From an uncultured Verrucomicrobiae bacterium (lineage in GTDB: Bacteria > Verrucomicrobiota > Verrucomicrobiia > Limisphaerales > Palsa-1400), in assembly GCA_963707025.1 (NCBI GenBank), contig CAVPOM010000005.1, positions 608,217 to 672,216 of the forward strand: a stretch of DNA of 64,000 nucleotides, given 5' to 3'. Shown here piece after piece: positions 1,127 through 32,442 of the stretch (position 1 is the first letter of the stretch; each line of letters begins with the position of its first letter). Below the pieces are notes generated by a model. That model had not been told where the DNA came from. It saw only the letters and a program-made list of their open reading frames with translations, and did not search any database. The position numbers and the translations under genes were made by a program.

Positions 1127-2551
1127 ATGATCGGATATATTCAACTCTTAATATTCTCTGTGCTAACGGCGACTACTGTCCAAGCCGAGCCAACCTTCTG
1201 GTCGTGGGCAAAGACCCCGCCGATGGGTTGGAACTCGTGGGACTGTTTCGGCGCCGGCGTCTGGGAATCAAATGTGATTGAAAACGCCGATTACATGGCG
1301 CACTTCCTCAAGCCGCACGGCTGGGACATTATCACGATTGACATCCAGTGGTATGAGCCGCTCGCGCACACGACCGCGTATCGCCGTGGCGCCGTGCTGG
1401 AGATGGATGGGAACGGACGATTGTTGCCGGCCACGAATCGTTTCCCGATGACGGCGGCGACACACTCGTTCAAACCGATTGCAGATTATTTACATTCGAA
1501 AGCTCTCAAATTCGGTCTGCACCTGTTGCGCGGCATTCCGCGGCGGGCCGTGGCCACAAAGCTGCCCGTCCTTGGAACCTCCTACACCGCCGCCGACATC
1601 GCCAACACGAATTCCATCTGTGCATGGAACGGCGACATGTATGGCGTGGACATGACCAAACCCGGCGCGCAGGAATATTACGATTCCGTGTTCGCCCTGT
1701 TTGCATCTTGGGGCCTGGATTATGTGAAAGTGGATGACCTCTCCTCGCCATACCACAAGGACGAGATTGAAGGCATCCGCAAGGCAATTGATCACTCGGG
1801 CCGGGCGATTGTTTTTTCAACTTCGCCGGGCGCAACCCCCGTGAATCAAGGACCACACATCGAGACACACGCGAACCTGTGGCGGGTCAGCAACGATTTT
1901 TGGGATGACTGGCGCTCGCTCTACGCCCAGTTCGCGCGGCTAAACAGTTGGACGCCCTTCCGCGGCTCCGGCCACTGGCCCGACGCCGACATGCTGCCGC
2001 TCGGCAACGTTCGGGCGTGGCAGACACGGGACAACTGGACGCATTTCACCAAGGACGAACAGTTCACGCTGATGACCCTCTGGTGCATCGCCCGCTCCCC
2101 GTTGATCCTGGGCGGCAACCTGCCGAAGAACGATGACTTCACCCTCGCGCTCCTGACCAACGATGAATTGCTCGCGGTAAACCAGAACTCCGCGAACAAC
2201 CGACAACTCTTAAACACCAATAATATGGTTGCATGGATTGCGGACGTGCCGGGGTCGAAAGACAAATATGTTGCGCTCTTCAACACCTCCCCTGCGCCCG
2301 TTTCTGGCGGTCGGCGCGGTGGCGGCTTCGGTGGGCTGGGTGCAACAGCCCCGTCCTCAACAAACGCGCCGGCTGCGGACCCGCGAGTGACCGACCCCCG
2401 GGATGTTTCGGTTTCCCTGGCGGACATCGGTCTCGCCGGACCCGTCAAGATCCGTGATCTTTGGCATCATAAAGACCTCGGCACCGTCACGGGCACACTT
2501 ACGCAGGCGATTAATTCCCACGGCGCGGGCCTCTACCGGGTCCAGCCGTAG
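1127..2551 (+). CDS. GH27 alpha-galactosidase / beta-L-arabinopyranosidase, secreted
   Basis: Signal peptide; TPPMGWNSWD, DIQWY, DYVKVDD, WPDADMLPLG motifs. Confidence 0.9.
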   Translation: MIGYIQLLIFSVLTATTVQAEPTFWSWAKTPPMGWNSWDCFGAGVWESNVIENADYMAHFLKPHGWDIITIDIQWYEPLAHTTAYRRGAVLEMDGNGRLLPATNRFPMTAATHSFKPIADYLHSKALKFGLHLLRGIPRRAVATKLPVLGTSYTAADIANTNSICAWNGDMYGVDMTKPGAQEYYDSVFALFASWGLDYVKVDDLSSPYHKDEIEGIRKAIDHSGRAIVFSTSPGATPVNQGPHIETHANLWRVSNDFWDDWRSLYAQFARLNSWTPFRGSGHWPDADMLPLGNVRAWQTRDNWTHFTKDEQFTLMTLWCIARSPLILGGNLPKNDDFTLALLTNDELLAVNQNSANNRQLLNTNNMVAWIADVPGSKDKYVALFNTSPAPVSGGRRGGGFGGLGATAPSSTNAPAADPRVTDPRDVSVSLADIGLAGPVKIRDLWHHKDLGTVTGTLTQAINSHGAGLYRVQP

Positions 2552-2567
2552 AATCAGATCATATGTT

Positions 2568-4694
2568 ATGAAGACCATGAATATAATGCGCTCCTCCTTG
2601 CTTGTCGCTCTGCTGGTTTGGGCCGCCTGCCCTGCTTTTGGGCAGGTCGTTTTGACACCCAAGATTCCCCCTGCCGCGGCAAAACACTGGACGGCCGACA
2701 ACGGCAACGGCACTTACTCCAACCCCCTGTTCTATGAGGAGTTCGAGGACCCCGACGTCATCCGTGTCGGCGAAGATTATTGCCTCGCCGGCACCACCAT
2801 GCACATGAATCCCGCGGTTCAGATCATGCATTCCAAGGACCTGGTGAACTGGGAACTGGCCGGCTATTGCACGAACAAGCTCGATCTTGGCCCGGTCTAT
2901 CGCCTTGAAGGCGGTAATATCTATGGCCGTGGCATCTGGGCGCCCTGCATACGCTATCACAAAGGTCTTTTCTACATTTTCGCAAACGTCAACGGCGCCG
3001 GCTTGATGGTTTACCGTTCCAAGTCCATTCAGGGTCCATGGGAGTGGAACCAGTTGCCCGGCAGACATGATATATCAGTCCTCTTCGATGACGATGAGAA
3101 GATCTACGTCATCTCCGGTAACAACAACCCTTATCCTATTGACGAGATCGCACCGGACCTCAAGTCCTTCATCCCCAATGCCCGCCACCAGCTCGTGGTC
3201 CCGCCGGACCAACGGATGGGGGAAGGCCACCATCTCTACAAGATCAAGGGCAAGTATTACGACATTTCGGCCATCCCCGGCGGGGCAGTCAACCAGGTGA
3301 TTGCCAAGGCAGACTCTATTGATGGCCCTTGGACCGTCACGACCATGGTCGAGAGTGAATCGCTGGGCGTGACCTCCGTGGCACCGGCGAGGGCCCAACC
3401 GAACGACCGCGGCCTGTGGCTGCACCAAGGTGGCATGTGCGATACGCCCTCGGGCGAATGGTGGAGTATCATCATGTCGGACCATGGCAGCGCTGGCCGG
3501 ATGGTGTCGCTGGTTCCCATCACTTGGGACAACGACTTCCCGCTCATCGGCCTGCCAGGCAACCTTCGCAAGGCACCCAATACCTGGCTCAAGCCCAACA
3601 CTGGGTTTACTCAGGCTCCCAGGCCGGCATTTGTCCATGACGACAACTTTGACAGTGGCAAGCTGAACCCGCTGTGGCAGTGGAATCACGTTCCGGACGA
3701 TTCCAAGTGGTCTCTGACTGAAAGGCCGGGTGTGCTTCGTCTGCATTCCTTGCCAGCCACTAGTTTCTGGACTGCCCGCAACAGCCTTTGCCAGCGGCCG
3801 CCGGGGCCCGAGTCCATCATGACTGTCGAAATGGACACGGCCGGCATGGTTGCTGGCGACACGGCGGGTTTGGCGCTGTTGAGCACTCCCTATGCCTGGA
3901 TTGGCGTGGTGAAAACCGCCGAAGGCGCCACGCTCCAGATGTTCCAAGGCTCAGGTGGTGGCGGGCGCCGTGGCGGGGCCGCTGCTCCGAGCAGTACGCC
4001 TGCCCTGGGTCCGACCAATCCCCCGAGCCACCTGTGGTTGCGTGTCGCTTGCAACTTTGACACGGACGGGGCCATCTTCAGTTGGAGTGCCGATGGCAAG
4101 CAGTTCACACCTCTGGGCAAGCCCTTCACCATGACCTTCCAGTTGACTACATTCCAGGGTGTTCGTCCAGCTCTGTTCAACTTCAACACCTCAGACCAGC
4201 CCGGTGGCTATGCCGACTTTGATAACTACGTCGTGGACGAGCCTCGCGCCTGCGGCATCGAGCGAGAAATTCCCATGGGCAAGACCATCACGCTGACCAG
4301 CGGCGCTGACGGCAGCTTCTTGGCCGCCGATGCCCAAAGCAATGTCTTGGTCAATGTGGCGGCAGATTCAGCCGAGACAACGACACCCAATGTGTGTTTT
4401 CAAGTCGTTGATCTCGGCAAGGGGCGCGTTGCATTGAAGGTTGCCAACGGCCGGTTCGTCTCTGCCCCTGAAGAGGGAGTCACATTGAAGGATCTCGCGG
4501 GCAATGCACCGGGTGACGCGGAGTCGTTCCAATGGATCAACCTGATGCGCGGCGACACCATGCTCATGTCGCTTGTCAACCATCGCTATTTGGCCACCCA
4601 ACCCAACAACCCCGGACCGGTCACAGTTTCTGCTGCCGGCCCGCGCCCGGCCCGCAAGGGCGGCGCTGAGTTCCAGTGGAAAACAGCCGAATGA
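2568..4694 (+). CDS. GH43 beta-xylosidase-like protein with C-terminal beta-sandwich and fascin/beta-trefoil-like domain
   Basis: ADNGNGTYSNP..DPDVIRVG, IWAP, EGHH, WQWNH motifs; start placed at ATG 2568 ahead of the signal peptide. Confidence 0.88.
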   Translation: MKTMNIMRSSLLVALLVWAACPAFGQVVLTPKIPPAAAKHWTADNGNGTYSNPLFYEEFEDPDVIRVGEDYCLAGTTMHMNPAVQIMHSKDLVNWELAGYCTNKLDLGPVYRLEGGNIYGRGIWAPCIRYHKGLFYIFANVNGAGLMVYRSKSIQGPWEWNQLPGRHDISVLFDDDEKIYVISGNNNPYPIDEIAPDLKSFIPNARHQLVVPPDQRMGEGHHLYKIKGKYYDISAIPGGAVNQVIAKADSIDGPWTVTTMVESESLGVTSVAPARAQPNDRGLWLHQGGMCDTPSGEWWSIIMSDHGSAGRMVSLVPITWDNDFPLIGLPGNLRKAPNTWLKPNTGFTQAPRPAFVHDDNFDSGKLNPLWQWNHVPDDSKWSLTERPGVLRLHSLPATSFWTARNSLCQRPPGPESIMTVEMDTAGMVAGDTAGLALLSTPYAWIGVVKTAEGATLQMFQGSGGGGRRGGAAAPSSTPALGPTNPPSHLWLRVACNFDTDGAIFSWSADGKQFTPLGKPFTMTFQLTTFQGVRPALFNFNTSDQPGGYADFDNYVVDEPRACGIEREIPMGKTITLTSGADGSFLAADAQSNVLVNVAADSAETTTPNVCFQVVDLGKGRVALKVANGRFVSAPEEGVTLKDLAGNAPGDAESFQWINLMRGDTMLMSLVNHRYLATQPNNPGPVTVSAAGPRPARKGGAEFQWKTAE

Positions 4695-4871
4695 AATACT
4701 GCCGCAGTTTCAAACTGGTTCACCCATCAAACCCCCATCAACGATCATCACAGACCAATACCAAACGGTTCCATCAAAAGGAATATTATGAACGTCATCA
4801 ACTCCACCCTCCGGCAAGTGACAACTTGCCTTTTCCACAGACACAGCCTTGCTCCTCACTTGAAATCCCCC

Positions 4872-7014
4872 ATGAATCCTCCCTTCCATCTGGTTTCTCG
4901 CCGTGTCCTCTTCGGGCTGGCTGCCCTGAGCGCGGTCCTGGTCTTCACCAGCCAAGTATCCGCCGCCGACCCTGGCAAGATCGTCGTCCAAGTTGACAAA
5001 CCCGGCGCGAAAATCAGCCCGACATTCTACGGCCTGATGACCGAGGAAATCAATTACTCCTACGATGGCGGCCTCTACGGGGAGCTGATCCAGAACCGCA
5101 TCTTCAAGAATGCTCCTCGCGGCGGACGCGGCGGACGCGAAGGCGGCGGTCCGAGGGCCACCAACACCGCGCCAGCAGTTCCAGCGCCTGTGGCGATCCC
5201 TCACTGGTCCGTGCTCAATTCCGAGGGCGCAAAGGGAGTAGTCTCCCTGGACACGAACGATCCGATCAACACGGTTGCGCTGACCACCAGCCTCAAGCTG
5301 GACATCACCTCCGTTGGCCGCCGCCAGCGCGTCGGCGTGGCCAACGACGGCTACTGGGGCATCCCGGTTCGGCCCAACACCACCTACCGGGCTTCGTTTT
5401 TTGCCAAAGCTTCGAAGGGCTTTTCGTGGCCATTGACCGTCAATATCGAATCCAATGACGGCCAGACCACATTCGCCTCCGCCACTTTGAGCGGCGTCAA
5501 AAATAAGTGGCAGAAATACACCGTCACCCTCAAGACCGGTGACGTTCCAGCCCACCGCCGCCGCGCGCTTCGTCATTTCCGCCGCTTCCAAGGGCACGCT
5601 GAACTTCAACCTCGTGTCTCTGTTCCCGCCGACCTACAAGGATCGCCTCAATGGCGACCGCATGGATATCAGCCAACTTCTGGCCGACATGAAGCCGACC
5701 TTCCTGCGCTTCCCTGGCGGCAACTATGTTGAAGGCAATGATTATGCAAATCGCTGGGATTGGCCCCGGACGATCGGGCCGATCGAGGAGCGCCCCACGC
5801 ACATGAGCCCGTGGGGCTATCGCTCGACGGATGGCATGGGACTTCTGGAGTACCTCGAATGGTGCGAGGACCTGAACATGGAGCCGGTCCTGGCGGTCTT
5901 CGCCGCCTACACGCTCAACCGCCAGAGCTATCCCGGTGAGTACGACCGGTTCGCGCAGGAGGCAGTGGACGAAATTGAATATGCCACCGGCGGTGTGAGC
6001 ACCAAATGGGGCGCGCAGCGCGCGAAGGGCGGCCACCCAAAACCCTTCAAACTGACCTATGTCGAAGTCGGCAACGAGGATCCGGGTGGCGGCAGAGGGG
6101 GTCAGCGGGCGACCTACCCTGATCGCTTCCCCCTCTTCTATCTCGCCATCAAGGCCGAGTTTCCCAACATACAGGTCATCTCCACCACACGCAGCGGTTT
6201 TGGCAACTACAGCCCCGATGTCATTGACGAGCATTATTATATGAACTACAACAGCGCGCTGGTCAACGCCCACATGTATGACAACCGCCCGCGCACGACC
6301 ACGAACGGCACGCCGGTTCCCAGGATCTTCGTGGGCGAATGGGCCACGCGCGACAATAACAACTCCATCCCCACGCCCACATTCCATGCAGCCCTGACCG
6401 ACGCCGCGTTTCTCACCGGCTTGGAGCGCAATGCCGACCTGGTCATCATGTCCTGCTACGCGCCTCTGTTCGTCAACGTGAGCCAGATCAGCGGCCCCGC
6501 CTCCTCGATGCAGTGGGCCACCGATTTGATCGGCTACAACACCCTGACCTCCTTCGGCTCGCCCTCCTACTACGTGCAGAAGATGTTTTACAACAACAAG
6601 GGCGATGTCGTGCTCCCGATTTCGCTAACGCCGCAGATCGAGCCGGCTCCCGTCGCCACGAACGCCGAGGCGGCCGGCGGGCCGGGCGGCTTTGGCGGGC
6701 GCGGGCGCGGCCCGACTACCCCGCCGCAGACCCTGTTTGCCTCCTCGTCACTCGATGAGGCCACCGGTGATGTGATCCTTAAAGTCATCAACGCGGTGGA
6801 AACGCCGCAGCAAATGGAAATCAGCCTGGAAGGCGCGCCGGTGATCGGCAAAACGGCCAGGATGGAAGTGCTCACCGGTGGTCTGACGGAGGTGAACAGC
6901 ATCGCTGAGCCGGTGAAAGTTGCTCCTAAGAGTTCCACCATCGCCGCGAGCGCGAAGTTTGTGTGCGAATTCTCAGAGCATTCGGTTACAGTGATCCGCT
7001 TTTCGACGAAATAA
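4872..7014 (+). pseudogene. GH51 alpha-L-arabinofuranosidase split by a single +1 frameshift near 5547
   Basis: N-part GLMTEEINYSYDGGLYGELIQNR; C-part FLRFPGGNYVEG, EVGNE, VGEWA, ERNADLV. Removing one base in GTTCCAG joins the two frames (DVQPTAAARF). Confidence 0.85.
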
Positions 7015-7121
7015 CCACCCATCACTGAAGGAAAATCCCATGAGCCAGCACGTTGTTCCGGACTTTCCCCCCTTGCTGAAGAGATGAGGCAATGCCTCCA
7101 ACCAATCAACAGACAAATCCC

Positions 7122-8672
7122 ATGAGAATCCTCCTCCTCACCGCAGCTATTCTTCCCCTGGCCGCGCCCGTGTGGGCTCTCGACGGCCAAGTTGGAATTC
7201 ACGACCCCTCCACTGTAATCCAATGCGACGGCAAGTACTACGCATTCGGCACCGGCAGCGGAGGCTTGATCTCCGACGACGGTTGGACCTGGCGCAGCGG
7301 CGCCGTGCGTCCCGGCGGCGGAGTGGCCCCCGACGTCATCCACATCGGGGATCGCTACCTTGTGGCTTATGCCGGAAGCGGGGTCCACACGATGTGGACC
7401 AAGACTCTTGACCCCAACTCGCCCGACTTCGAATTTCACGACGACACCGTCGTCGCCACGGGTGACTTGGATTGCAATGCGATTGACCCGGGTTTCATGC
7501 TGGACCCCACTGACGGCAGGCTGTGGCTGACATACGGGTCGTATATTGGCTACATCCGGCTGGTCGAACTCGACCGCAAGACCGGCAAGCGCGTCAACCC
7601 GAACGACCAGCCCGTCAATATTGCCATCAATTGCGAAGCTTCGGACATGATTTATCACGAGGGTTGGTATTACCTCCTGGCCGACCACGGCTCCTGCTGC
7701 GCCGGGGCGGCCTCGGGCTACAACATCCGCGTGGGCCGCGCGATAAAGGTGACCGGCCCCTTCTTCGACAACATGGGCGTTGATATGCTCCAAGGCGGCG
7801 GCAAGCTCTTCGTCGGCTCCAGCGGCCGCGTCGTCGGTCCCGGCCATTTCGGCCTGCTCGACTTGGGCGACGGCGTGCAAAAATTCTCCTGTCATTATGA
7901 AGCGGACCTGGATCGGGGCGGCGCCAGCGTGCTCGATATCCGGCCGCTGCTATGGAAAGACGGCTGGCCCGTTGCCGGTGACAACTTCAAGGAAGGCACT
8001 TATGAAATCGAATCAATCCGAACCGGCACGGCACTGGAACTTGCCGTGGAAGGTGTCCCGGTTGGTGGCGCACGCGGCAGAGGAGCCCGCGGCGCGGGGG
8101 TTGGCAGACGAGGCGCCCCCGGCGGCGGAACCAATGGACCCGCCGGAAGCGGCGGCCAAATCGCCCCCGGTGGCCTCGGTGAAACCAACGCAGCCGGTGG
8201 ACTCGGTGCGCGCGGCGGCGGAGGGGGCGGACGAGGTATGTTCGGTGGCCAGGGTGGCGTCATTCCGCCACAGGATGTCGCCCAGGTCTCGACGAATTGG
8301 CCGGCCGGCAACATTGACACGCGCATGGCCAACTACATGGACCAAGCCCAGCAGAAATGGGCCGCTACCGCCGTCACCCATGCCGGCGGTTATCCCGGCT
8401 CCCCGTATTTCAAAATCACCATCGCCGGCACGGATCGCGCGCTGGCCGCGACCGGGGACGGAGAATTGGTTGTGCTCCCCTCCTTTACCGGCGAACCACA
8501 ACAGCTCTGGCGGCTTGATCAGCTTGCCGACGGCTCCTGGCGCATCATGCCCAAGTCTGTTCCGAATACCAAAGAACCGCTGGCACTCTCGGCCATCGGC
8601 AGCAGTTTCGCAACGCTGGCCAAATTCAATCCCGACAGCGACAAGCAACGCTGGCTGTTCAAAGCTCCATGA
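7122..8672 (+). CDS. GH43 endo-arabinanase-like protein with C-terminal ricin-type beta-trefoil
   Basis: IHDPST, APDVI, NAIDP, GPGHFG motifs; QxW repeats in the C-terminus. Confidence 0.85.
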   Translation: MRILLLTAAILPLAAPVWALDGQVGIHDPSTVIQCDGKYYAFGTGSGGLISDDGWTWRSGAVRPGGGVAPDVIHIGDRYLVAYAGSGVHTMWTKTLDPNSPDFEFHDDTVVATGDLDCNAIDPGFMLDPTDGRLWLTYGSYIGYIRLVELDRKTGKRVNPNDQPVNIAINCEASDMIYHEGWYYLLADHGSCCAGAASGYNIRVGRAIKVTGPFFDNMGVDMLQGGGKLFVGSSGRVVGPGHFGLLDLGDGVQKFSCHYEADLDRGGASVLDIRPLLWKDGWPVAGDNFKEGTYEIESIRTGTALELAVEGVPVGGARGRGARGAGVGRRGAPGGGTNGPAGSGGQIAPGGLGETNAAGGLGARGGGGGGRGMFGGQGGVIPPQDVAQVSTNWPAGNIDTRMANYMDQAQQKWAATAVTHAGGYPGSPYFKITIAGTDRALAATGDGELVVLPSFTGEPQQLWRLDQLADGSWRIMPKSVPNTKEPLALSAIGSSFATLAKFNPDSDKQRWLFKAP

Positions 8673-8731
8673 ACACCTGTTGAAAACCGGAATCCACACT
8701 TGAAAATCCAAATTCTCGCAAACGGCCTCAT

Positions 8732-9427
8732 ATGACCACTCTTCGCACCATCCTGATCCCGGCATCCGCCGTCCTGGCCGCCACCGTACTGTTGACCTCC
8801 GCCGCTGCTCAAGGCGTGCCGGCTCAGGCTCCCGTCACGCTTACGCCCCCAGACTCCCCAACCAAGGCACCCAGCCCGGAGGGTTTCCTGCAGCGCTGGA
8901 TCATCCTGGATCCAATCCGCGTCAGCGGAGTCACCCAGAGCGCCGTCCAGGCGGCGGTCAAGAAAGAGTACTTTCCCAACCAGTTCACCGTCATTCCGCA
9001 CGACGGCGACAAGGTGACTGCTGGCGACGCGGAACTCACCTGGCACGCTGTGGATACCAAGGACTACAACGTGAACCTCTATCACTTCGCCTATGCGCTG
9101 AACAAGCCGTCGTCCGGCGTCCTGTTTTGGGCCGTCACCATCGTCAACTGCCCGGAAGAAATGCGCGGTGTTCGTCTGGCCATCGGTTCCAACGACGCTT
9201 CTGTCTGGTGGGTCAACGGCCAGGAGGTCATTGGCATCTACGGTGACCGCCAGACCGTCATCGACGACGGGGTCTCGAAAAAACTCACGCTCAAAAAGGG
9301 ACCTAATGTGATACGTTGCGCAGTCCACAACCAAGGCGGCGCGACCGACTTTTGCGCCCGGTTTCTCGACGGGGATGACAAGCCGCTAAAGGGATTCACC
9401 CTGAGTGTGGGTGACGTCGGGAAGTAA
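8732..9427 (+). CDS. Secreted beta-sandwich hypothetical protein (possibly carbohydrate-binding)
   Basis: Signal peptide; LAIGSNDASVWWVNG...LKKGPN pattern typical of PA14/galactose-binding-like folds. Confidence 0.6.
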   Translation: MTTLRTILIPASAVLAATVLLTSAAAQGVPAQAPVTLTPPDSPTKAPSPEGFLQRWIILDPIRVSGVTQSAVQAAVKKEYFPNQFTVIPHDGDKVTAGDAELTWHAVDTKDYNVNLYHFAYALNKPSSGVLFWAVTIVNCPEEMRGVRLAIGSNDASVWWVNGQEVIGIYGDRQTVIDDGVSKKLTLKKGPNVIRCAVHNQGGATDFCARFLDGDDKPLKGFTLSVGDVGK

Positions 9428-9431
9428 GCCT

Positions 9432-10323
9432 GTGAAGACAGGAAGACTGCAGGTTGCGCTGATTACCCTGCTGGGCTGCGGAGTCTGTGCCGGGAAGGAT
9501 TCCTGCCTTGATTGTCACCGCATCATGGAAGGTATGATCCCAACCAAATTCTGGCGAACCTCTACATCGCCATCACCTACTATCAGTACCCCAATTTCAT
9601 GTTTTCGTTCGGCGGCGGCGGAACGGAGGATTATTCGATTGTGCCCTGCACCCTCGCCTACATGTTTCTGCAAAGTTACCAAACCAACCTTCACCTTTTC
9701 CCCAATTGGCCAGCGAACCAGAATGCTTTTTTCGGCAATTTGAACGCCTGCAACGGGTTTTTGGTCTCCAGCGCCATGACCAATGGCTTGATCTCCTGCG
9801 TGCAAATCACCAGCACAGCCGGTCATTTATTGAATCTGGCCAAACGCTGGCCGCAGACACCTTGAGCCTGAAAGCGCGCTTGGCGAGCGACGCCTCCGGC
9901 GGCAATATCGAACTGCGTCTGGGCACGACCAACGGCCCGCTGATTGGCGTCCTCACGGTGACAAACACCGGCGGGTGGCAAACCTGGACGACGGTGAGCA
10001 CGGCGTTGACGAATGCCAGTGGTGTCCAGAACCTGGTGCTGCGGTTTGTGGGCGGGAGTGGGTATTTGTTGAACGTGGAATGGCTGGGGTTCACCCCGAT
10101 CTCGTCGGCGCCGGTGCAACTGGGCTGGCAACGCAGCGGCTGGCAATTGCAGTTCAATTGGCCCGCGGACCACACCGGATGGCGGTTGGAAGCCCAGGCC
10201 AATGCGCTTGGCGCCGGCCTGGGCACGAATTGGCTGACGGTTCCAAGCTCAACCTCAACAAACACTGTTTCCATTCCCATCACCACCAATGACAGCGCCT
10301 TTTTCCGGCTCGTTTACCCTTGA
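9432..10323 (+). pseudogene. Mosaic remnant: cytochrome c N-terminus + GH95-like C-terminal fragment + partial CBM6 + C-terminal domain
   Basis: Signal peptide then CLDCH; MFLQSY..LHLFPNWP..GFLVSS fragment; IELRLG..TGGWQTW CBM6 half; ends FFRLVYP. The pieces lie in different frames. Confidence 0.6.
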
Positions 10324-10543
10324 ACTCCGGTGGCGTCAGTCTGGTTTGCGTCCGGCTCGGTTCTTGTCACGTCCTATACGTTCGAGAAAAATCCTGCTTC
10401 GAAGGAATCTCCGTGCAAAAGCCGTTCTTCGGCCGGCCTACAGCGGTTGGACAAGGATGGAGGTCTCCCGAGGGATATACGGATATATTGCAACTCCCGA
10501 CCCGAACTTGACTGAACGCTTTTTTCCGGCAGTATGGCGTGTC

Positions 10544-13759: not shown

Positions 13760-13790
13760 GTTGCGAATCTGAGAAATCTCACGACATCAC

Positions 13791-14414: not shown

Positions 14415-14476
14415 CACGGAGCCGCCGGCGCTCCAAACAAGACCATCGGCGCTGCCAACGGGGTAACCGGGTCGAA

Positions 14477-14506
14477 TATGACATGTGTCATACGCCATAT
14501 GTCGGA
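14477..14506. promoter_or_regulatory. Two overlapping 7-2-7 inverted repeats, candidate response regulator operator
   Basis: TATGACA-TG-TGTCATA (perfect) and TACGCCA-TA-TGTCGGA upstream of the LamG gene. Confidence 0.55.
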
Positions 14507-14643
14507 TTTCATTTGCTCCCGATTCCCGCTAGTCTCTGCCTGAAATCCAACTTGTTAGGTAAGGCTTCGTGAGTACCTATGGCCGTGCTTGCGCGACGAA
14601 ACTGATGCCCTTGAGTTGGAAAAAAGTACTGAACATTAAGCTT

Positions 14644-17600
14644 ATGAATCCAAACAACCCAAGACTTGCTCCATCCTCCCGAAACTCACAGGCACGGTTC
14701 CGTTTGCTTCCCTTCACGGCCAGCCGAGTCGGCAAGCTTGCCGCCTGCCTCATACTGGGCGTCGCGGCGCTCTCGCAATCGGCCCGCTCTCAGCCGCCCA
14801 GTTACGCGGCATCGGCCTTGTCCAATAAGCCGGTTGCTTTTTGGCAGTTGAATGAAGCCAACGGAGCTACGCAGGCTAAGGATTCCAGCCCCAACGGACT
14901 CAATGGGACCTATGGAGTGGATGCTGTACTGGGCGTCTTTTTTGCGCCCTATACTCCTTACCTTGGATTTGCAATCAACCAAACTGCGCTGCTATGTACG
15001 GCCGGCGATTTAACTTCGGTGGCCACAATTCCGCCTTTGAATTTGAACACCAACGCCGTGACCATCGCCATGTGGATCAATCCCACTGCCGAGGTAAGCA
15101 CCGGCTTTACGGGATTGCTCATGACCCGAACCTCCGGAGGCGACGCGGCTGGCTTTGGGTTTGGGGGAAGCTCGAACAGCCTCGGCATGGTCGAACTGGG
15201 TTACACTTGGAACACGAACAACGCCGCGACGTACAACTTCAATTCGGGGCTTTATCCGCTGGTCGCCCAATGGCAGTTTGTGGCCTTGGTGGTCCAATCA
15301 AATTCGGCGACCATCTATCTGTATTACGTTGATTACTCCGGGAATACGCAATTGCAGTCGGCCGTCAATCCCATTGCGCACGGCCCCGAAGCGTTCAGTT
15401 TCAGCGACGGAGTGAACGGATTGATTTTGCTGGGCTCCGATGTGAACGGGACTACCGTCGCTGCGGCCAACAACGTGTTCCCCGGTGAAATTTCCGATGC
15501 GGCCGTGTATAAATCGGCCCTCTCTTCCGACCAGATTCTGGCCTTGTTCGCCGCGGGCGTCGGCGTGGAGGGATTTGCGCCAGAGATAACCGGGCAGCCC
15601 CAATCCGAATACGTCGTGTCGGGCGCACCGGCACACCTGACGGCCACTGGCATCAACGGCACCACCAACATTTCGTTTCAGTGGCAGTTGAACGGCACCA
15701 ATGTCAATGCCCTGGCGGACAGCGCCAATTTCACCGGCGCCACAAGTTCGAACGTATTGACTATTCTCAGTGCAACGCTGGCCGATGCGGGTACTTATCA
15801 GTTGATTCTCACGAACACTTATGGCACGAACTACAGCAGCAATGCGGTTCTTGTCATTCAGGCTCCGGCCTTGGTGGGTGAATGGCTTACCAATGGCATT
15901 TTGGCCGATGTTTCGGGCTATTCGCCGGCCGGCACCCACGACGGTTACGACATCGTTGGCAATGGCGCCTTTTTGTTCACCAATGATGTGCCGGTCGGCA
16001 AGGCCGGTCAATCGATTTGGTTCACCAATCTTACCGGCATCGCCATCAGTAACTCGTCCACATTGGACGGGACGACCTACACCAACACTTTCGATAACGT
16101 CATCAACAACGCTTTCACCGTCTCATGCTGGGGGAAGGGTTTGCCGGGAAGTTGGAATCCGTTTGTGTCCAAGTGGGGTGAAGGCAGGCCCTACAGTTCG
16201 CCCGACGGCGGCTTTCAGCTCCGCACGGACGGTAATGGCAATGATTCGTGCTTCACCGTTCGCTGCGAACAAAGGGGCACGCTCCTCTTTGGGAACGCGG
16301 CCGACGCTATTGATGACATGGCCACCACAACCGTTCCCACCGCGGATGGCAAATGGCACTTCTATGCCGGCACTTACGACGCCGGGACGGGCATCCGCAG
16401 CCTGTGGGTGGACGCGATCCTGGCCGCCCAGGAGAGCAACAACGTGCTTTATGACCTGGCCCCGTATTCACACCTTTGCATCGGCGCCAAAGACAGCTCT
16501 CCGGGCAACACCTTTGGCCAGTACACCAGCAACCTGCTGGTTTACGACGTGCGCATCTATAACTACGCGCTCGCCCAATCCAATGTTCTGAAATTGTATG
16601 GCGCAGTTCCGGCAGTGATCAACGGGCAGCCGCCTTCCGCTTACCCCTTCGCGGGCCAATCGGCAACGATAGGAGCCGTTGTCGGCGGCACCCAACCCAT
16701 TACGTATCAGTGGACGTTGAACGGCACCCCTGTCAACCTCCTGCCTGACGCCGCCAATTTCACCGGCGCCACAAATTCGAACGTATTGACGATTGCCAGT
16801 GCGTCGGCGGCCGACCAGGGTGTGTATGTGTTGGCTATCACGAACGCCTTCGGATGGGCAATCAGCAGCAATGCGGTCCTGACACTTTCCGTTCCGAGCC
16901 TGGTGGGTGAATGGTTTAACGGACCAGCCATCCTGAACGATGTTTCGGGCTATTCGCCCACGAACACACACGACGGTTTCGCCACCGGCGCTCAGAGCTA
17001 TGCGTTCACAACTGATGTGCCGGCCTACAGATCCGGAAACTCGCTTAGTTTCGGAGCCTCCAGTGCATCGGGCATCTCCATCAGTAACTCATCCACAGGT
17101 TACCCGGGCTACACCAACACGTTCGATAACCAGGTGTACACCTATCTCACCGTCTCGATGTGGGTGAAAGGCACTTTCGCCGCGTATTCCTCCGCCGGCT
17201 GGCCGGCCTTCGCAGTCAAGAATGGTGAAAGTGGCGGATGGCAGCTGCGCGGTGACCAATGGGCCGCGCCCGGTTGGACCGTTCGAGACAATAACGCGGG
17301 CACGATGTTCAATGGCCAAAACGGGGGGTGGGACGGTAACGACGATATGTCCGCGAATGCTGGTTTTGATGGCAAATGGCATCTCTATACCGGCACATAC
17401 AACTCCCTATCGGGCTATCGCGCCCTGTATATTGATGGCCAACCTACTGTTTACGAGACCGGCAACAAGCCATATATCACGGCCACGGCTTCACACGTCA
17501 CTATCAACGGCGAAGACTCTGGCAATGGCAATTATAATTTCACCACGCCCGCGTTTGAATACTACGACCTGCGCATCTATAACTACGAACTCAGTGCTGC

Positions 17601-18834
17601 CCAGGCTTCGGATCTCTACAACATTCTGCCCCCTGGCACTCCGGCACAAATAGGCATCCAGCCGCCAGCCAGCATCAGCACCACTTGTCAGGGTGTAACT
17701 GTTCAGATCCGTGCCGCTAGTGGTGGCAGCCCACCGGTTACCAATCAGTGGCAGTTCAACGGCACCAACTTGGTGGACGGCAACTATGGCGGCGTCATTA
17801 TTAGCGGCTCAAGTTCGAACGTCCTGACGATCGCCGATGTGACGACGAACTACCAGGGTGTATATGACTTGGTTGCCACGAACGCGTTTGGCGGGCAAGT
17901 CAGCAGCAATGCGACTCTCACCATTGGTGTTTTGCCCACTGCGCCCGCACCGCCGGGGACACTCGTGGGTGCATGGCTTACCGGAGCAGCGACTCTGGCC
18001 GACACTTCGCGCTATTCGCCGGCGGGGACACACGACGCTTGGCAAACGGCCGGCAGCACCTCTTGGACCAATGACCTGCCGCCCATGGCCACGCCGGGCG
18101 GTTCCTCGCTGTATTTCACCAACGCCGGTCTGGCGATTAGCAATTCCTCCACGCTGGATCCCGGCTACACCAGCACGTTCGATGCCGCCATCACCAACAG
18201 TATGACCGTCATGTGCTGGGCGAAGGGTTGGCCGGGCACATGGAATCCGTGGGTGTCCAAGTATGGTGAAAACGGTGCGGGCTGGCAGCTCCGCGTCAAT
18301 GCTTCGGACACTGCGTGTTGGACCATTCGCGGCACGGGTGGCAATGAGGATATGGGAGCGCCCAATAGCAGCGATGACGGCGGTTGGCACAGCTATGTCG
18401 GCACTTACGACGTGCCGTCGGGTATCCGCAGCCTCTATATAGACGGAGTGCTGGCCGTTACGCAGACCGGCCAGGGACCATATAACGAGTCCACTCCCTC
18501 GCAGCTTATGATTGGCGCCAAAGACAGCGGTGGCAACAAGTTTGGCAACTACTACACCGGCGAAATCTACGGCGTGTACATTTACGACACCGCACTCAGC
18601 GCAGCCCAAGTTAACGGCGTCTTAATAACGCCGCCGCCGCCACTGCCGTCGTTTAATGGCCTGCCAGGCATCACAACAGGCCCCAGTGGCCCTGAATTCG
18701 TGCTGACGTGGGTAGGCGGCAGGTTGCTCGGAGCGACGAACGTGACTGGCCCGTGGACGCCAACCGGGGCAACATCGCCTTACACGAACTTCATGACAAA
18801 TACGCACATGTTCTTCCAATTGGTTAATCCGTAA
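14644..18834 (+). CDS. Large exported protein with four LamG-like jellyroll domains alternating with Ig-like domains
   Basis: Repeated W(H/Q)x(Y/V)xxTY..DVRIYNYAL LamG motifs, YQW.LNG..D.G.Y Ig motifs, signal peptide, ends FFQLVNP. Confidence 0.85.
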   Translation: MNPNNPRLAPSSRNSQARFRLLPFTASRVGKLAACLILGVAALSQSARSQPPSYAASALSNKPVAFWQLNEANGATQAKDSSPNGLNGTYGVDAVLGVFFAPYTPYLGFAINQTALLCTAGDLTSVATIPPLNLNTNAVTIAMWINPTAEVSTGFTGLLMTRTSGGDAAGFGFGGSSNSLGMVELGYTWNTNNAATYNFNSGLYPLVAQWQFVALVVQSNSATIYLYYVDYSGNTQLQSAVNPIAHGPEAFSFSDGVNGLILLGSDVNGTTVAAANNVFPGEISDAAVYKSALSSDQILALFAAGVGVEGFAPEITGQPQSEYVVSGAPAHLTATGINGTTNISFQWQLNGTNVNALADSANFTGATSSNVLTILSATLADAGTYQLILTNTYGTNYSSNAVLVIQAPALVGEWLTNGILADVSGYSPAGTHDGYDIVGNGAFLFTNDVPVGKAGQSIWFTNLTGIAISNSSTLDGTTYTNTFDNVINNAFTVSCWGKGLPGSWNPFVSKWGEGRPYSSPDGGFQLRTDGNGNDSCFTVRCEQRGTLLFGNAADAIDDMATTTVPTADGKWHFYAGTYDAGTGIRSLWVDAILAAQESNNVLYDLAPYSHLCIGAKDSSPGNTFGQYTSNLLVYDVRIYNYALAQSNVLKLYGAVPAVINGQPPSAYPFAGQSATIGAVVGGTQPITYQWTLNGTPVNLLPDAANFTGATNSNVLTIASASAADQGVYVLAITNAFGWAISSNAVLTLSVPSLVGEWFNGPAILNDVSGYSPTNTHDGFATGAQSYAFTTDVPAYRSGNSLSFGASSASGISISNSSTGYPGYTNTFDNQVYTYLTVSMWVKGTFAAYSSAGWPAFAVKNGESGGWQLRGDQWAAPGWTVRDNNAGTMFNGQNGGWDGNDDMSANAGFDGKWHLYTGTYNSLSGYRALYIDGQPTVYETGNKPYITATASHVTINGEDSGNGNYNFTTPAFEYYDLRIYNYELSAAQASDLYNILPPGTPAQIGIQPPASISTTCQGVTVQIRAASGGSPPVTNQWQFNGTNLVDGNYGGVIISGSSSNVLTIADVTTNYQGVYDLVATNAFGGQVSSNATLTIGVLPTAPAPPGTLVGAWLTGAATLADTSRYSPAGTHDAWQTAGSTSWTNDLPPMATPGGSSLYFTNAGLAISNSSTLDPGYTSTFDAAITNSMTVMCWAKGWPGTWNPWVSKYGENGAGWQLRVNASDTACWTIRGTGGNEDMGAPNSSDDGGWHSYVGTYDVPSGIRSLYIDGVLAVTQTGQGPYNESTPSQLMIGAKDSGGNKFGNYYTGEIYGVYIYDTALSAAQVNGVLITPPPPLPSFNGLPGITTGPSGPEFVLTWVGGRLLGATNVTGPWTPTGATSPYTNFMTNTHMFFQLVNP

Positions 18835-21600: not shown

Positions 21601-21673
21601 ATGGCGAACGCGCGCCCTTTAACGCAGCGGAAAGACGTTGACGGAGTGATATTAACAGGTACAATGCACAGCG

Positions 21674-24808: not shown

Positions 24809-24930
24809 TTTGTTGAAACGACCGATGTCCTGTACAATGACAAACAATCGCCTAAAATGTCCTTCAAACTCGTTTGCACAAAACTATGTTGACACCGTCC
24901 TTACCGAGTCGGAATCCCAATTCAAGTTTG

Positions 24931-25593: not shown

Positions 25594-25825
25594 GAAGCAA
25601 ATCACGCATAAAACGACGTTCTGAACGTAATCAGGCCCTGCCAGCATGATCCCGCACGACGGCGGCACAAACCCGCAGACCCATTCCGAGGTCCGCGGCC
25701 GGCATACGACGTTTGGCTGATACCAACCGGCCTGCATTTCTGCTACGGTGACCATCAAATCAGCCCGAAATGTCAGCAGACCTGACGATATCGGCCTTGA
25801 CGAACGCACAACATAGTCCAATTGA

Positions 25826-26725
25826 ATGAAACCTCGACACAGTTCTTGTGGACTGCCCTGGCACCCGGAATCCCGGCCTCGGGCAGTGTGCGGCTTTACT
25901 TTGATCGAACTGCTCGTGGTCATCGCCATCATCGCCATTCTGGCGGCCTTGTTGCTCCCGGTTCTGGCCAACGCCAAAAAGAAAGCCCAGGAAACTTACT
26001 GCCGGAACAATGAAAAGCAGTTTGTCCTGGGTTTGACAATGTATGCGGACGACTACCGCAATGTGGTGTTGCCATTTTTTCTGGATGCAAACGGTGACGA
26101 TGCCGGCGGCTATTATGGATGGCCCACCCTGTCTCAAGGGAATGATTTTCCAGGTGTGAGTCAGGCGGCGGCCCTGGAAAACGCCAAAGAGGCACTGACG
26201 AACAGCATCCTCTACCCCTACGTCAAGAACGTGAATAGTTTCCATTGCCCGGGCGATACGCGCATCTCCCGGCCCACCGGCGGGGGCGGATTTGCCTTCT
26301 GCACTTATTCCAAGACGCAGAACTACGGCGGCGAATCCTACGATAGTTATTGGGGTCAGGGCGCCACCATTAACAAAGCGTCCGACATTACGGCTCCCTC
26401 CATGACCTTTGCAGAGGTGGAGGATACTGACTGGCGCGGATTTGACGAGGGAACCTTCGTCTTGAATGGCGTGGTGGGCACCACCCCCTGGGTGTTCACC
26501 CCGGAGGATCCGCTGGGCATGTATCATGTCAATGTGAATGTTTGGGGCTTCGTGGACGGCCATGTGGAGAGTCATAAATGGACCTACCAATCGGCCATCA
26601 CGGCCGGCCTGGAAGCCTCCACGGGACAAAACACGGCGGGCCAGTGGATGCTCCCCAATGGAGGCGCCTCGGCCAAGGATTACCAGTACATTCAAAACCG
26701 CTGGCGATTTCCAGGGTGGCATTGA
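25826..26725 (+). CDS. Prepilin-type N-terminal cleavage/methylation domain protein (DUF1559-like)
   Basis: [23 protein letters not shown] leader, FHCPGD, C-terminal H-X9-DG ([13 protein letters not shown]). Confidence 0.9.
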
Positions 26726-26851
26726 CGGACGGACTTGTGAGCTTTTCAACCGTGCTTTGACTGATGCGGAAGTGCATGACATTTATACGGAAGGGAAACG
26801 GCTGGAGCCCTAACCACCGGCTGAATTTCTCCAAATGACCAAGAACACTCT

Positions 26852-28255
26852 ATGAAAACACTATTCTCACTTCTCCCGCTTGCTTCCATGTTGGCGGGCC
26901 AGCTATGCCCCGCCCAAACCAATAAACCGGCGGACGACTGGAAACCAGCGACATCCAACCAGCAGGGCAAACAGTATCCCCAGGTCAACTCGGAAAGGCG
27001 CATCCGCGCCCGCGTCGTCGCGCCGCAAGCCACGAGCGTCTTGTTCGATATCAGCGCCGTAAAATACCCCCTGACCAAGGGCGAAGACGGCGCCTGGATC
27101 GGCGTCACGCAGCCCCAGGACGAAGGTTTCCACTACTACCAGATATGGGTTGATGGCGCTGCGGTTCCGGACCCCGGCAGCCTGTACTTCTACGGCGCCA
27201 GCCGCTGGGGCAGCGGCATCGAAATCCCCGCCGAGGACCAGGACTTCTACGCCCTCAAGAACGTGCCCCATGGCCAGTTGCGGGAGGTCCACTACTTTTC
27301 CAAAACCAGCAGTTCGACCCGTCGCTGCTTCGTTTACACCCCGCCCGATTATGACAAGAATCCGAACACGCGCTTCCCGGTGCTCTATCTGCAGCACGGC
27401 GCGGGCGAAGATGAAACCGGTTGGGGCAACCAGGGCCATGCCAACCTGATCATGGACAACCTGATTGCCGATGGCAAAGCCAAGCCCTTCATCATTGTGA
27501 TGGAAAACGGCCTCAACGCCGGTGGTGCTGGCGGCGGTGGTCGGCGAGGCGGCGGTCGCGGCGTTGCGGCTCCGGCTGCCGCACCTCCCGCCAACACCAA
27601 CCTGCACGTTGTGGTGGTCCAGGCCGATGCTGCGGACGCGCCGGCTGGTGCGGCTCCTGGCGGCGCGACGAACAGCGCTCCGACTCGCGGCGGTCGTGGC
27701 GGTTTCGGCGGCTTTAACTTCACCGCCTTCGAGCAAGTTCTCACTGATGACCTAATCCCGTATATTGACAGCAACTTTCGCACTATTGCAGATCAGCCCC
27801 ACCGGGCGATGGCCGGCCTCTCCATGGGCGGCATGCAGACCCGAACGATTACCATGGCCCACCTCGACACGTTCTCCCACATAGGTATTTTCAGCGGCGG
27901 CAGCATCGGCACGAACGACATCACCGACATGGCGGCCTTCCAGCAGAAGGTCAAACTCGTGTTCGTCAGCTACGGCAGCCGCGAACTTGACTCCGGCAAC
28001 CGCAGAGGCGGAGGCCCTCCAGGCGCGGCTCCTGGCGGCGCTCCTGCTGGCGATACAAACGCGGCCCCGGCTCGCGGCGGGCGCGGCGGCCGTGGGGGCT
28101 TTGGCGGCTTTGGCGGCGACCCCAAGGCGAACGCCGACGCGCTCAAAGAGGCTGGCATCAACAGTCACTACTACATATCTCCGCTGACTGCTCACGAATG
28201 GCAGTCCTGGCGGCGCAGCCTGTTTCAATTTGCCCCGCTGCTTTTCCAGGATTGA
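26852..28255 (+). CDS. CE1-like esterase (feruloyl/acetylxylan) with N-terminal CBM48-like domain
   Basis: VYTPPDY, YLQHGAGEDE, AGLSMGG nucleophile, HEWQSWR. Confidence 0.88.
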   Translation: MKTLFSLLPLASMLAGQLCPAQTNKPADDWKPATSNQQGKQYPQVNSERRIRARVVAPQATSVLFDISAVKYPLTKGEDGAWIGVTQPQDEGFHYYQIWVDGAAVPDPGSLYFYGASRWGSGIEIPAEDQDFYALKNVPHGQLREVHYFSKTSSSTRRCFVYTPPDYDKNPNTRFPVLYLQHGAGEDETGWGNQGHANLIMDNLIADGKAKPFIIVMENGLNAGGAGGGGRRGGGRGVAAPAAAPPANTNLHVVVVQADAADAPAGAAPGGATNSAPTRGGRGGFGGFNFTAFEQVLTDDLIPYIDSNFRTIADQPHRAMAGLSMGGMQTRTITMAHLDTFSHIGIFSGGSIGTNDITDMAAFQQKVKLVFVSYGSRELDSGNRRGGGPPGAAPGGAPAGDTNAAPARGGRGGRGGFGGFGGDPKANADALKEAGINSHYYISPLTAHEWQSWRRSLFQFAPLLFQD

Positions 28256-28302
28256 TTGCCCAGGCTGTCAACCACGCCCCATTATTAATTCTCAACTAAT
28301 GA

Positions 28303-31014
<2,712 letters not shown>

Positions 31015-31161
31015 GCGAACCACGAAGAACCGCTGTTTGGGAGAAGCAACCGCTCACCAGCGGCGGCACCGTCAGATTTTGACTCATGACTCGGATAGGA
31101 GCAAATCTTGGCGACCAAACAAACTCCCCGCCAAAACCAATTGAATCCAAACCCCACACTC

Positions 31162-32442
31162 ATGAAGACCCGCATCCCAATCATCAACTCTCACTTCAGC
31201 CTGCTGACCTCCGCCTTTCTGGCAATTGGTGCAACGGCACGGTCCGCCGACACGTCCACCCTCAAGGACGCCTACAAAGACCAGTTCTATGTTGGCGTGG
31301 CCATCAACCGCACCATCGCGATGAGCGTAGCGGTCCGCGCGGACAACGTCAACCGAAACCAGGAACAGGTCAACAAAGACATCTCTCTCGTCAAGGAACA
31401 GTTCAACCAGATTTCTCCGGAGAACGACCTGAAGTGGGCACTCATCCATCCGCAGGAAGGCCCGGACGGCTATAATTTCGGCCCGGCTGACGCTTACGTG
31501 AACTTCGGCCTGAGCAATCACATGTATATCGTGGGTCACACACTCGTCTGGCACGGCCAGACACCCAACTGGGTATTCGCCGGAACGAATCTCCCGCCGG
31601 GAGACACCAACGCCGCCGCCAGCGCCGTTACGGACGCGAATCCGCCCGGGACAAACGCGCCAGGGCGTGGAAGAGCAGGCCGTGGTTTCGGCGGCGGCTT
31701 CGGTCGTGGCGGTCTTAGCGGACCGCGCGCGTCGCGCGACGAGTTGCTCCAGCGGATGCGCGATCACATTCACACCGTCGTTGGCCGCTACAAGAGCAAG
31801 ATCAAGGTCTGGGACGTGGTAAACGAGGCCATCGCCGACGGGGGCACGAACATCCTGCGAAGCTCACCCTGGGAGCAGATCATCGGGCCGGACTTCATCG
31901 CCAAGGCTTTTGAATACGCCCACGAAGCCGATCCTCAAGCGATCCTCCGCTACAACGACTATGGATTGGAGAATCCGGCCAAGCGCCGCAAACTGATTAC
32001 TTTGATCAAGTCACTACAGGAGCAACACGTTCCGGTGATGGCCATTGGTTCGCAAACCCACGTCAGCGTTTCTTCGCCGAGCTTTGAGCAGGAAGACCAA
32101 GCGTTGACGGAATTGGAGACACTCGGCTTGCCCATTCATATTACGGAATTCAACGTCAACAGCGCGCAGGGCGGCCAGCGCAGTACAGGCGCGGACATCG
32201 CCAACAATGCCGCGACCACCCAGGGCGGCCTGGTGGATGCAGCCAACCAGCGGCTGGCCGACGCCTACGCGGGTCTTTTCCGGGCGTTCATCAAGCACGA
32301 CAAATCCGTGAGGGTGATCACATTCTGGGGCGTGAATGACGGGGTTTCCTGGCGCGCCCAAGGCCGTCCGCTGTTGTTCGACGCCAATGACCAACCCAAG
32401 CCAGCCTTTGACGCCGTTATCGCTGAGGTGAAGAAGCGCTGA
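31162..32442 (+). CDS. GH10 endo-1,4-beta-xylanase
   Basis: PENDLKW, GHTLVWH, WDVVNE, YNDY, HITE, TFWG motifs. Confidence 0.92.
   Translation: MKTRIPIINSHFSLLTSAFLAIGATARSADTSTLKDAYKDQFYVGVAINRTIAMSVAVRADNVNRNQEQVNKDISLVKEQFNQISPENDLKWALIHPQEGPDGYNFGPADAYVNFGLSNHMYIVGHTLVWHGQTPNWVFAGTNLPPGDTNAAASAVTDANPPGTNAPGRGRAGRGFGGGFGRGGLSGPRASRDELLQRMRDHIHTVVGRYKSKIKVWDVVNEAIADGGTNILRSSPWEQIIGPDFIAKAFEYAHEADPQAILRYNDYGLENPAKRRKLITLIKSLQEQHVPVMAIGSQTHVSVSSPSFEQEDQALTELETLGLPIHITEFNVNSAQGGQRSTGADIANNAATTQGGLVDAANQRLADAYAGLFRAFIKHDKSVRVITFWGVNDGVSWRAQGRPLLFDANDQPKPAFDAVIAEVKKR

Follow-up and report, generated by a model that had tools for sequence, protein, structure and literature searches.

Glycine/arginine/phenylalanine inserts in seven enzyme genes

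The window, a 64,000-nucleotide stretch from the assembly of an uncultured Verrucomicrobiae bacterium (C5:608217-672216, to which all coordinates given below without a contig name are relative), encodes seven secreted carbohydrate-active enzymes (CAZymes) that carry inserts rich in glycine, arginine and phenylalanine. The source genome is 88% complete. An earlier note, made from the letters alone, had reported about 12 such inserts in these 7 genes: every one translates as claimed, in its gene's own frame, and Pfam bears out the family names (GH27, GH43 with GH43_C2, GH51, GH43 with ricin, CE1-type esterase and GH10). The typical insert is bipartite, with an Ala/Pro/Thr-Asn spacer and a Gly/Arg/Phe block.

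All seven genes lie on the + strand. The GH27 alpha-galactosidase family gene (1127-2551) encodes a signal peptide and bears its Gly/Arg/Phe block in the C-terminal β-sandwich (2303-2341), followed by an Ala/Pro/Thr-Asn spacer that extends to ~2400. The GH43 plus GH43_C2 gene (2568-4694), also with a signal peptide, has a Gly/Arg block within GH43_C2 (3948-3977). Three blocks are present in the GH51 arabinofuranosidase gene (4872-7014): block 1 (5115-5156) in a loop of 33 residues, versus 8-10 in nearly all more distant homologues, block 2 (6082-6108) immediately after the GNE motif, which we take to be the acid/base motif, and block 3 (6676-6711) in the C-terminal domain. The insert reported at 6080-6110 is therefore present but not long, as the loop counts 11 residues where homologues have 4-8. 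The assembled GH51 gene is frameshifted near 5540-5560, whereas its orthologue from the same genus is a single intact 721-codon frame; several other carriers are split in the same manner, so the assembly likely contains indel errors. The GH43 arabinanase-like gene with a ricin-type domain (7122-8672) accommodates an insert of ~65 residues (8064-8258), in which two Gly/Arg blocks (8064-8114 and 8196-8258) flank a Thr-Asn spacer. The proposal that this insert splits the ricin domain is plausible from the sequence, and the Pfam ricin match begins after the insert.

Further downstream, the CBM48-CE1 feruloyl-esterase-like gene (26852-28255), assigned by Pfam and by structure comparison and close to PDB 6RZO, carries insert 1 (27521-27715), with two Gly/Arg blocks, and insert 2 (27989-28129). 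The adjoining multi-domain gene (28312-31014) comprises, according to Pfam, two esterase domains, a malectin domain and a third esterase, as the earlier reading of a multi-esterase implied. Its first Gly/Arg/Phe block (28981-29064) occupies the site equivalent to CE1 insert 1 and its last (30181-30225) closes the malectin-esterase linker; the insert placed between them at 29240-29315 exists but is weak, with a single Arg and a single Phe next to a Thr-Asn spacer (29248-29315). The GH10 xylanase gene (31162-32442) encodes a signal peptide and an insert (31579-31719) in which a Thr-Asn/Ala/Pro spacer precedes a Gly/Arg/Phe block (31663-31713); the source databases assign its closest homologues to Verrucomicrobiota / Limisphaerales. 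As previously stated, blocks are absent from the two kinases, two regulators, CE6 and GH120 of the window. No comparable block was found in any of 18 other window proteins (26 scanned, GH51 counted as two), the GH43-CBM6, LamG/Ig, TPR, ars and Ser/Thr kinase proteins also being without one.

The inserts are not assembly artefacts since contigs from two independent public runs bridge two of them, spanning 30181-30225 with 0 differences and 31663-31713 with 2 differences and no gap. Alignment to solved homologues places the CE1 and GH10 inserts in loops, in agreement with the expected surface position. In comparison with 6RZO, the closest solved homologue, CE1 insert 1 has 59 residues versus 4 and insert 2 has 47 versus 6. 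In an AlphaFold model built from an 87-row homologue alignment, the CE1 core is confident (predicted local distance difference test, pLDDT, of at least 90 for 299 of 447 residues) and both inserts are predicted to be disordered: pLDDT falls under 50 for residues 205-265 and 375-398 of the model (25-48 in the insert 1 blocks and 42-58 in the insert 2 block). GH10 has ~43 extra residues in one loop relative to solved GH10 structures (4K68), and the same loop is 9 residues long in the genome's own paralogue and in four similar genes of genus g10. As these homologues and the paralogue do without the inserts, the folds do not need them and they are additions at surface loops. Across carriers, the blocks occupy tolerant surface positions, termini and linkers.

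CE1 esterases have a variable β-clamp and flexible loop (PMC8040265), and we infer that the CE1 insert 1 region corresponds to this variable clamp. The raw material is visible in CE1 homologues, those of low-GC lineages included: loops at site 1 are variable and contain Pro, Arg, Lys or Asp, and site 2 has a short Arg..Gly-Phe/Trp-Gly-Gly seed.

Genome-wide extent and association with export

Genes were called across the genome with a home-made caller (4,965 genes, 77% coding density), which misses genes such as the N-terminal part of GH51, and carriers were defined by a strict Gly/Arg rule, under which 78 of the 4,965 proteins carry 100 segments. Among proteins of at least 150 residues, classed by a heuristic signal-peptide rule, the signal-peptide class contains 46 matching proteins among 894, the cytoplasm class 23 among 2,340 and the membrane class 5 among 675; for the first versus the second, the odds ratio is 5.5 (p = 1e-11). 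Upon shuffling each protein, 0-3 of the 894 signal-peptide proteins match, versus 46 for the real sequences. Most of the 23 cytoplasm-class matches are exported proteins with a mis-called start. Inspection by eye of N-termini, upstream frames and orthologues assigned ~66 of the 78 carriers to export and 6 to the cytoplasm, with 6 of uncertain location. The cytoplasmic six are homoserine dehydrogenase, KatG, ribosomal S5, an aldo-keto reductase, an RRM protein and VgrG, and their matches are mostly conserved or RNA-binding motifs. All 6 cytoplasm-class proteins containing RGG-x(0-4)-RGG are Tat substrates or mis-started or fragmented exported proteins, as judged by eye or from orthologues. The inserts are not equally frequent in cytoplasmic proteins and are strongly tied to export.

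Of the 71 carriers that lie outside the window, 70 were scanned with Pfam to determine their families and 13 with NCBIfam. The CAZymes among them belong to GH2, GH3, GH35, GH53, GH92, GH95, GH106, GH116, GH127, lyases and CE15. Other carriers are four DPP-IV peptidases, an M28 peptidase, two amidohydrolases, both halves of the secretin GspD, two HlyD adaptors, a Tat molybdoenzyme, a dioxygenase, a cytochrome and an ankyrin protein. Sec, Tat, lipoprotein and membrane-anchored proteins are all represented. Among proteins of 350-1,200 residues, CAZymes make up 16 of 40 signal-peptide carriers versus 7 of 40 non-carriers drawn at random from 419 (p = 0.047), and hydrolases overall 24 of 40 versus 9 of 40 (p = 0.001). 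CAZymes are favoured among carriers, yet most exported CAZymes lack a strict block. With CAZymes accounting for only about a third of the carriers (~26-28 of 78), the blocks are not the CAZyme-specific tag that had been suggested. Most carriers (61 of 78) have a single segment; the median is 18 residues per segment and 3 block arginines per protein, and 34 of the 100 segments are without an aromatic residue.

GspD is split into two genes at C6:474169-477139, one for the N-domain part and one for the barrel part, which has a signal peptide of its own. The frame of the N-domain part is 430-700 codons long in 29 of the best 30 family loci, and all 30 have a first loop rich in Arg, Gly and Phe. 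Loop 2 is Arg/Gly-rich in 6 of 6 genomes of the host genus (g1), whereas all 24 other family loci have a different motif there; GspD is vertically inherited, and its loop 2 gained Arg/Gly within g1. The barrel part opens with a Gly-rich tail of 40-55 residues. In a solved secretin, the N3 loops point into the pore and are disordered (PMC8563730), and from its sequence the GspD pore is predicted to have an FG-like lining. The genes adjoining the cluster also carry blocks. Beside it, C6:487157-488748 encodes two small helical exported proteins with long Gly/Arg/Phe tracts that are conserved in three other same-genus genomes; the one that was scanned had no family match.

A second sequence feature bears on where the carriers reside. 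A tail of ~45 residues closing with F[FY]R[LV] terminates 63 signal-peptide proteins and 45 others and is possibly a sorting domain; it occurs in three window proteins (9706-10323, 14569-18834 and 53072-54688), in which it had no Pfam or NCBIfam match. The tail-bearing proteins are large, poor in Arg and Lys and surface-like in appearance. None of the 63 carries a block, versus 46 of 831 other signal-peptide proteins, with 6.6 blocks expected by length (Poisson p = 0.001; the per-protein Fisher test gives only p = 0.07). The lack of blocks in these surface-type proteins suggests that the carriers are periplasmic rather than outside the cell, as does the presence among them of HlyD adaptors, GspD, the Tat molybdoenzyme and lipoproteins. 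The Thr-Asn dipeptide of the spacers is 2.2-fold enriched in exported proteins, its frequency in tail-bearing proteins is 18.6 per 1,000 residues, and every one of 112 GH10 inserts retains 2-5 copies; it may possibly be a glycosylation motif. N-glycosylation was rejected as the cause of the excess since N-x-S/T without a preceding Thr is not enriched (1.05).

Composition and distribution among relatives

Gly-rich segments chosen without regard to Arg or Phe (146 segments in 109 proteins) are enriched 4.6-fold in Arg and 2.3-fold in Phe, with Asp, Glu, Val, Cys and Lys at 0.2-0.6 of background. The single-step codon neighbours of Gly, except Arg and Ala/Ser, are depleted, and Phe, which is enriched, lies two steps away. 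Codons within the segments are mixed, and perfect DNA repeats are in slight excess (mean 9.1 versus 7.6 ± 0.2 nt).

We compared 37 segment pairs with four same-genus genomes, from which loci were fetched around pattern matches. The synonymous divergence (dS) is 0.53 in blocks versus 0.46 in the core, and the ratio of non-synonymous to synonymous divergence (dN/dS) is 0.25 versus 0.22. Orthologous segments contain 60% Gly, 18% Arg and 1% Asp+Glu (8 of 673 residues), whereas the shares under simulated neutral evolution are 30% for Gly and 8.5% for Asp+Glu; not one of the 673 residues is Cys, His, Trp or Lys. Of 115 Arg positions, 96 are retained (neutral 46-59%), and of 29 Phe positions 19 (neutral 38-51%), Phe being kept more weakly than Gly and Arg. 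As the pairs are non-independent and aligners flatter low-complexity matches, the composition result is firmer than site retention, and the 23 orthologous segments that are not themselves pattern matches have the same composition. Neutral GC slippage, the alternative raised by the earlier note, is refuted: synonymous sites have diverged fully while Gly and Arg stayed, and the blocks are conserved at the protein level among orthologues. Neutral microsatellite expansion was rejected on the same data, as dS reaches 0.53 and yet Gly remains at twice the simulated share. Elements of the Rickettsia palindromic type consist of homologous DNA of fixed length inserted in frame in many genes. A mobile in-frame repeat of this kind was likewise rejected, since lengths and sequences differ, codons are mixed and the median longest perfect self-repeat is 8 nt, although no all-against-all alignment of the DNA was made.

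The GH10 insert extends this comparison. In a homologue ranking that favours insert-bearing matches, 119 of the best 120 parse to an insert of 34-58 residues, and the blocks of 112 parsed homologues contain 53% Gly, 18% Arg and 17% Phe, with an aromatic residue in 111 of 112. Among seven family orthologues, dN/dS is 0.14 in the core, 0.25 in the spacer and 0.32 in the block, with ~20% gaps. Insert length is thus free among orthologues and composition is constrained.

To compare genomes, we used as a proxy a DNA pattern coding for GGRGGRGG. It has 23 matches in the source genome, of which 17 are in frame within called genes; this makes it usable but noisy, and rejects out-of-frame poly-Ala as the source of the matches. 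The 5 same-genus genomes all have 15-30 matches, versus 0-8 in 19 other genomes of the family and 0-17 in 16 genomes of the order. The GC content of the examined loci is similar in g1 (0.61) and in g4, g6 and g9 (0.60-0.61). Several matches in the same-genus genomes are no more than 60 bases from a contig end, and it is therefore likely that short-read assemblies break at such tracts. With a stricter pattern, at least 10 matches occur in 1 of 250 other genomes of the phylum and 5 of 121 Acidobacteriota genomes; one phylum genome has 36 matches, mostly in tandem tracts. Among genomes behind the CE1 loci, a Solibacteraceae genome has 23 matches, a Bryobacterales genome 17 and a Planctomycetia genome 15, while 15 low-GC genomes have 0-1. 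By eye, 12 of the 13 matching proteins examined in the Solibacteraceae genome have signal, Tat or anchor N-termini, and 5 of 8 in the planctomycete have export-type N-termini. The trait is therefore genome-wide in one Limisphaerales-like Verrucomicrobiota genus and found also in some Acidobacteriota and Planctomycetota; it is real, selected and convergent on exported proteins.

At individual sites, GH51 blocks 1 and 2 are present in 3 of 3 close orthologues and in none of the more distant homologues, a further gain within g1. The GH27 block is retained by all 5 homologues from the same genus that belong to the insert-bearing clade and is eroded in 2 of 2 from genus g4.

Candidate functions of the blocks

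RGG regions are regarded as RNA-binding and condensate modules of the cytoplasm and nucleus, and a spacing of 0-4 residues defines RG/RGG repeats. The blocks resemble such Gly/Arg-rich (GAR) regions, as found in FUS, hnRNP A1 and nucleolin and in bacterial RRM and ribosomal tails, in their Gly-rich disorder (predicted, from the model, for CE1), Arg, aromatic residues and few acidic ones; the genome's own RRM protein and ribosomal S5 match the same rule. Close spacing is common among the 78 carriers, with RG-x(0-4)-RG in 47, RGG-x(0-4)-RGG in 27 and triple repeats in 11. In contrast to these nucleic-acid-binding regions, ~66 of the 78 carriers are exported and only 2 bind RNA, and the blocks sit in loops of folded enzymes with no RNA-binding domain alongside; they are also short, mostly single and often paired with a Thr-Asn/Ala/Pro spacer. 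FG nucleoporin repeats are Gly-spaced Phe in disordered chains. The blocks share the Gly-spaced Phe, and a ring of such loops is predicted from sequence in the family's secretin, but they differ in being Arg-rich, with one to three Phe per loop and no repeat arrays, and we know of no transport receptor for them.

With the cellulosome, the blocks have in common that an add-on recurs across many different polysaccharide-active enzymes. However, they comprise no folded docking module or scaffoldin, and the carriers look periplasmic and extend well beyond polysaccharide-active enzymes. The cohesin and dockerin families (PF00963, PF00404) have 0 matches in the 88% complete genome and were found in control genomes, and Pfam scans of the carriers detected neither, which argues against homology to cellulosomes. 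Nor is the scaffold-free cellulosome analogue supported in the form proposed earlier, as carriers include membrane-anchored and Tat proteins, valence is low and none of the 63 surface-type tail proteins is a carrier. Like the CE1 hypervariable loops (PMC8040265) and the disordered secretin N3 loops (PMC8563730), the sites at which the inserts grow are known or inferred to be variable and disordered; unlike in those cases, unrelated loops here converge on one composition in one lineage.

We tentatively favour the view that the blocks are weak cationic/aromatic handles tethering likely periplasmic proteins to an anionic envelope component, a reading to which we give somewhat less than even confidence. 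It retains the anionic-polymer binding and periplasmic tethering put forward in the earlier note, without its CAZyme tag or scaffold-free assembly. Blocks would originate at already variable loops, where GC-rich units of 3 to 9 bases slip in frame, and would often grow from a short ancestral Arg/Gly-Phe-Gly-Gly seed; the Ala/Pro/Thr-Asn spacer would keep the block clear of the fold. The ligand of Arg and Phe might then be phospholipid head groups, peptidoglycan or periplasmic glucan, and such binding would cut enzyme loss and raise the local concentration near transporters. Because unrelated folds, termini and membrane-fixed proteins share the block, and because its occurrence goes with the host lineage, a cell-supplied partner is likelier than an enzyme-specific role. 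In simulations, [XRGG]7 peptides did not condense alone, [GRGG]7 co-condensed only with RNA and [FRGG]7 aggregated (bioRxiv 10.64898/2026.01.26.701751). The condensation of [GRGG]7 only upon RNA addition favours a polyanion partner. PMC3422733 mentions RNA in the paryphoplasm second-hand, which we take as a lead only.

Several observations weigh against a tether. Dependence on the host is partial, as outside g1 a good block is kept at 5 of 10 close orthologous cluster sites and eroded or lost at the other 5. Among exported proteins only ~5% have the strict block, and among exported CAZymes about one in five, which is not what a general retention device predicts. MdoG, of the candidate glucan pathway, is encoded by 26 of the 31 family genomes, a distribution that does not follow the trait. 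The orthologue pairs behind the conservation result are non-independent and were fetched around pattern matches, and since Lys is hard to reach from these codons (simulated neutral Arg-to-Lys is only 1.5%), its absence does not prove Arg-specific chemistry. Finally, some blocks lie near active sites (GH51 after GNE; CE1 site 1), where a local catalytic role fits equally.

Co-assembly is compatible with tethering, and both can hold. Here, Arg-Phe cation-pi contacts, with or without a polyanion, would act as stickers and spacers that cluster the enzymes into periplasmic condensates acting jointly on polysaccharide. The composition and repeat spacing fit RGG/FG grammar, seven carriers lie within one xylan cluster, and CAZymes and hydrolases are enriched. 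Many host folds are oligomeric, which multiplies valence. We nevertheless consider co-assembly unlikely, as single short segments predominate, a third of segments are without an aromatic residue, carriers include membrane-fixed proteins and the genome has no cohesin or dockerin; low valence, together with the failure of seven-repeat peptides to condense in simulation without RNA, favours a tether.

Each loop might instead form a flexible cationic lid that captures anionic substrates (glucuronoxylan, pectin or peptide carboxylates) for its own enzyme. Besides the block after the GH51 GNE and those in the putative CE1 β-clamp, the enrichment of hydrolases speaks for local capture, as do homologous loops elsewhere that bear Arg even when not Gly-rich. 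It seems quite unlikely, given that blocks also occur in linkers, termini, the secretin, HlyD tails, a cytochrome and ankyrin proteins, that enzymes for neutral substrates carry them and that close solved homologues work without them. An alternative that would apply to any fold is that the block aids folding, solubility or export as a permanently charged, structure-free bristle against aggregation in an acidic, dilute periplasm where Asp and Glu are uncharged. The purge of Asp/Glu with retention of Arg agrees with this, and near-identical contigs come from peat and soil runs. The retention of Phe (19 of 29 positions; aromatic residues in nearly all GH10 blocks) favours stickiness over solubility, however, and carriers of related loops come, according to their records, from digesters and sediments as well, so that we regard a solubility role as quite improbable.

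More far-reaching, and in our estimate distinctly unlikely, is the idea that several Verrucomicrobiota, Acidobacteriota and Planctomycetota lineages independently evolved a periplasmic RGG/FG sticker code, in which tagged hydrolases and a polyanion form a condensed digestive phase and the Gly/Phe/Arg-lined secretin is its selective gate, comparable to a nuclear pore. A nearly neutral origin, in which GC slippage seeds loops that are purged in the cytoplasm through RNA binding and tolerated outside, with selection acting only against misfolding residues, appears very unlikely, and pure neutrality is already largely refuted. It would account for the mild excess of perfect repeats, the restriction of the trait to GC-rich genomes, the free length and the absence of blocks from most paralogues (63 non-carriers), but not for block synonymous sites that diverged like the core while Gly and Arg were kept, for the depletion of most codon neighbours of Gly alongside enriched Phe, or for sister genera at 58-61% GC with 0-8 matches versus 15-30. 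Least probable of all is a secretion or gating signal, read by the Gly/Phe/Arg-lined type II secretin as FG repeats are at the nuclear pore: although the first GspD loop, the Arg/Gly-rich second loop in g1, the block-bearing neighbours and the pore-facing N3 loops of PMC8563730 agree with it, such a route is hardly to be expected for lipoproteins, for adaptors anchored in the inner membrane or for exo-acting enzymes of periplasmic type, and the secretin loop is shared by the whole family, whereas the enzyme trait belongs mainly to the genus.

Positively selected indels in periplasmic loops of Planctomycetes-Verrucomicrobia-Chlamydiae (PVC) proteins have been proposed to be adaptive (Kamneva et al., PMC3000692); in the main text of that paper, the terms 'glycine', 'low complexity', 'signal peptide' and 'repeat' do not occur and the block motif is not described. 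Full-text literature searches, judged from their listings, yielded no description of Gly/Arg inserts in bacterial exported proteins. An RGG type that is selected, has evolved repeatedly and sits on periplasmic enzymes would mean that abundant polysaccharide degraders of peat and soil organise their periplasm in a hitherto unrecognised way, and would provide a portable tag to hold or cluster enzymes. Near-identical enzymes with and without the loop (CE1 versus 6RZO, GH10 versus its own paralogue) make function directly testable. As the inserts split domain matches and break assemblies, such enzymes are easily mis-annotated.

Other features of the window were recorded. Directly after the arabinanase gene, 8732-9427 encodes a 231-residue signal-peptide protein with no Pfam or NCBIfam match. 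Short frames at 9512-10323, with a partial CBM6 and the C-terminal tail and no catalytic domain, look like a gene remnant. On the - strand, 36724-42745 is presumably an arsenic resistance cluster (Acr3, ArsA, a methyltransferase-ArsD-like-AhpD-like fusion, ArsC and ArsR), and 52406-57740 encodes in one run an extracytoplasmic function (ECF) sigma factor, a Ser/Thr kinase with TPR repeats and a leucine-rich-repeat surface protein. Insertion-sequence genes are located at 35720-36253 and 58234-63333.

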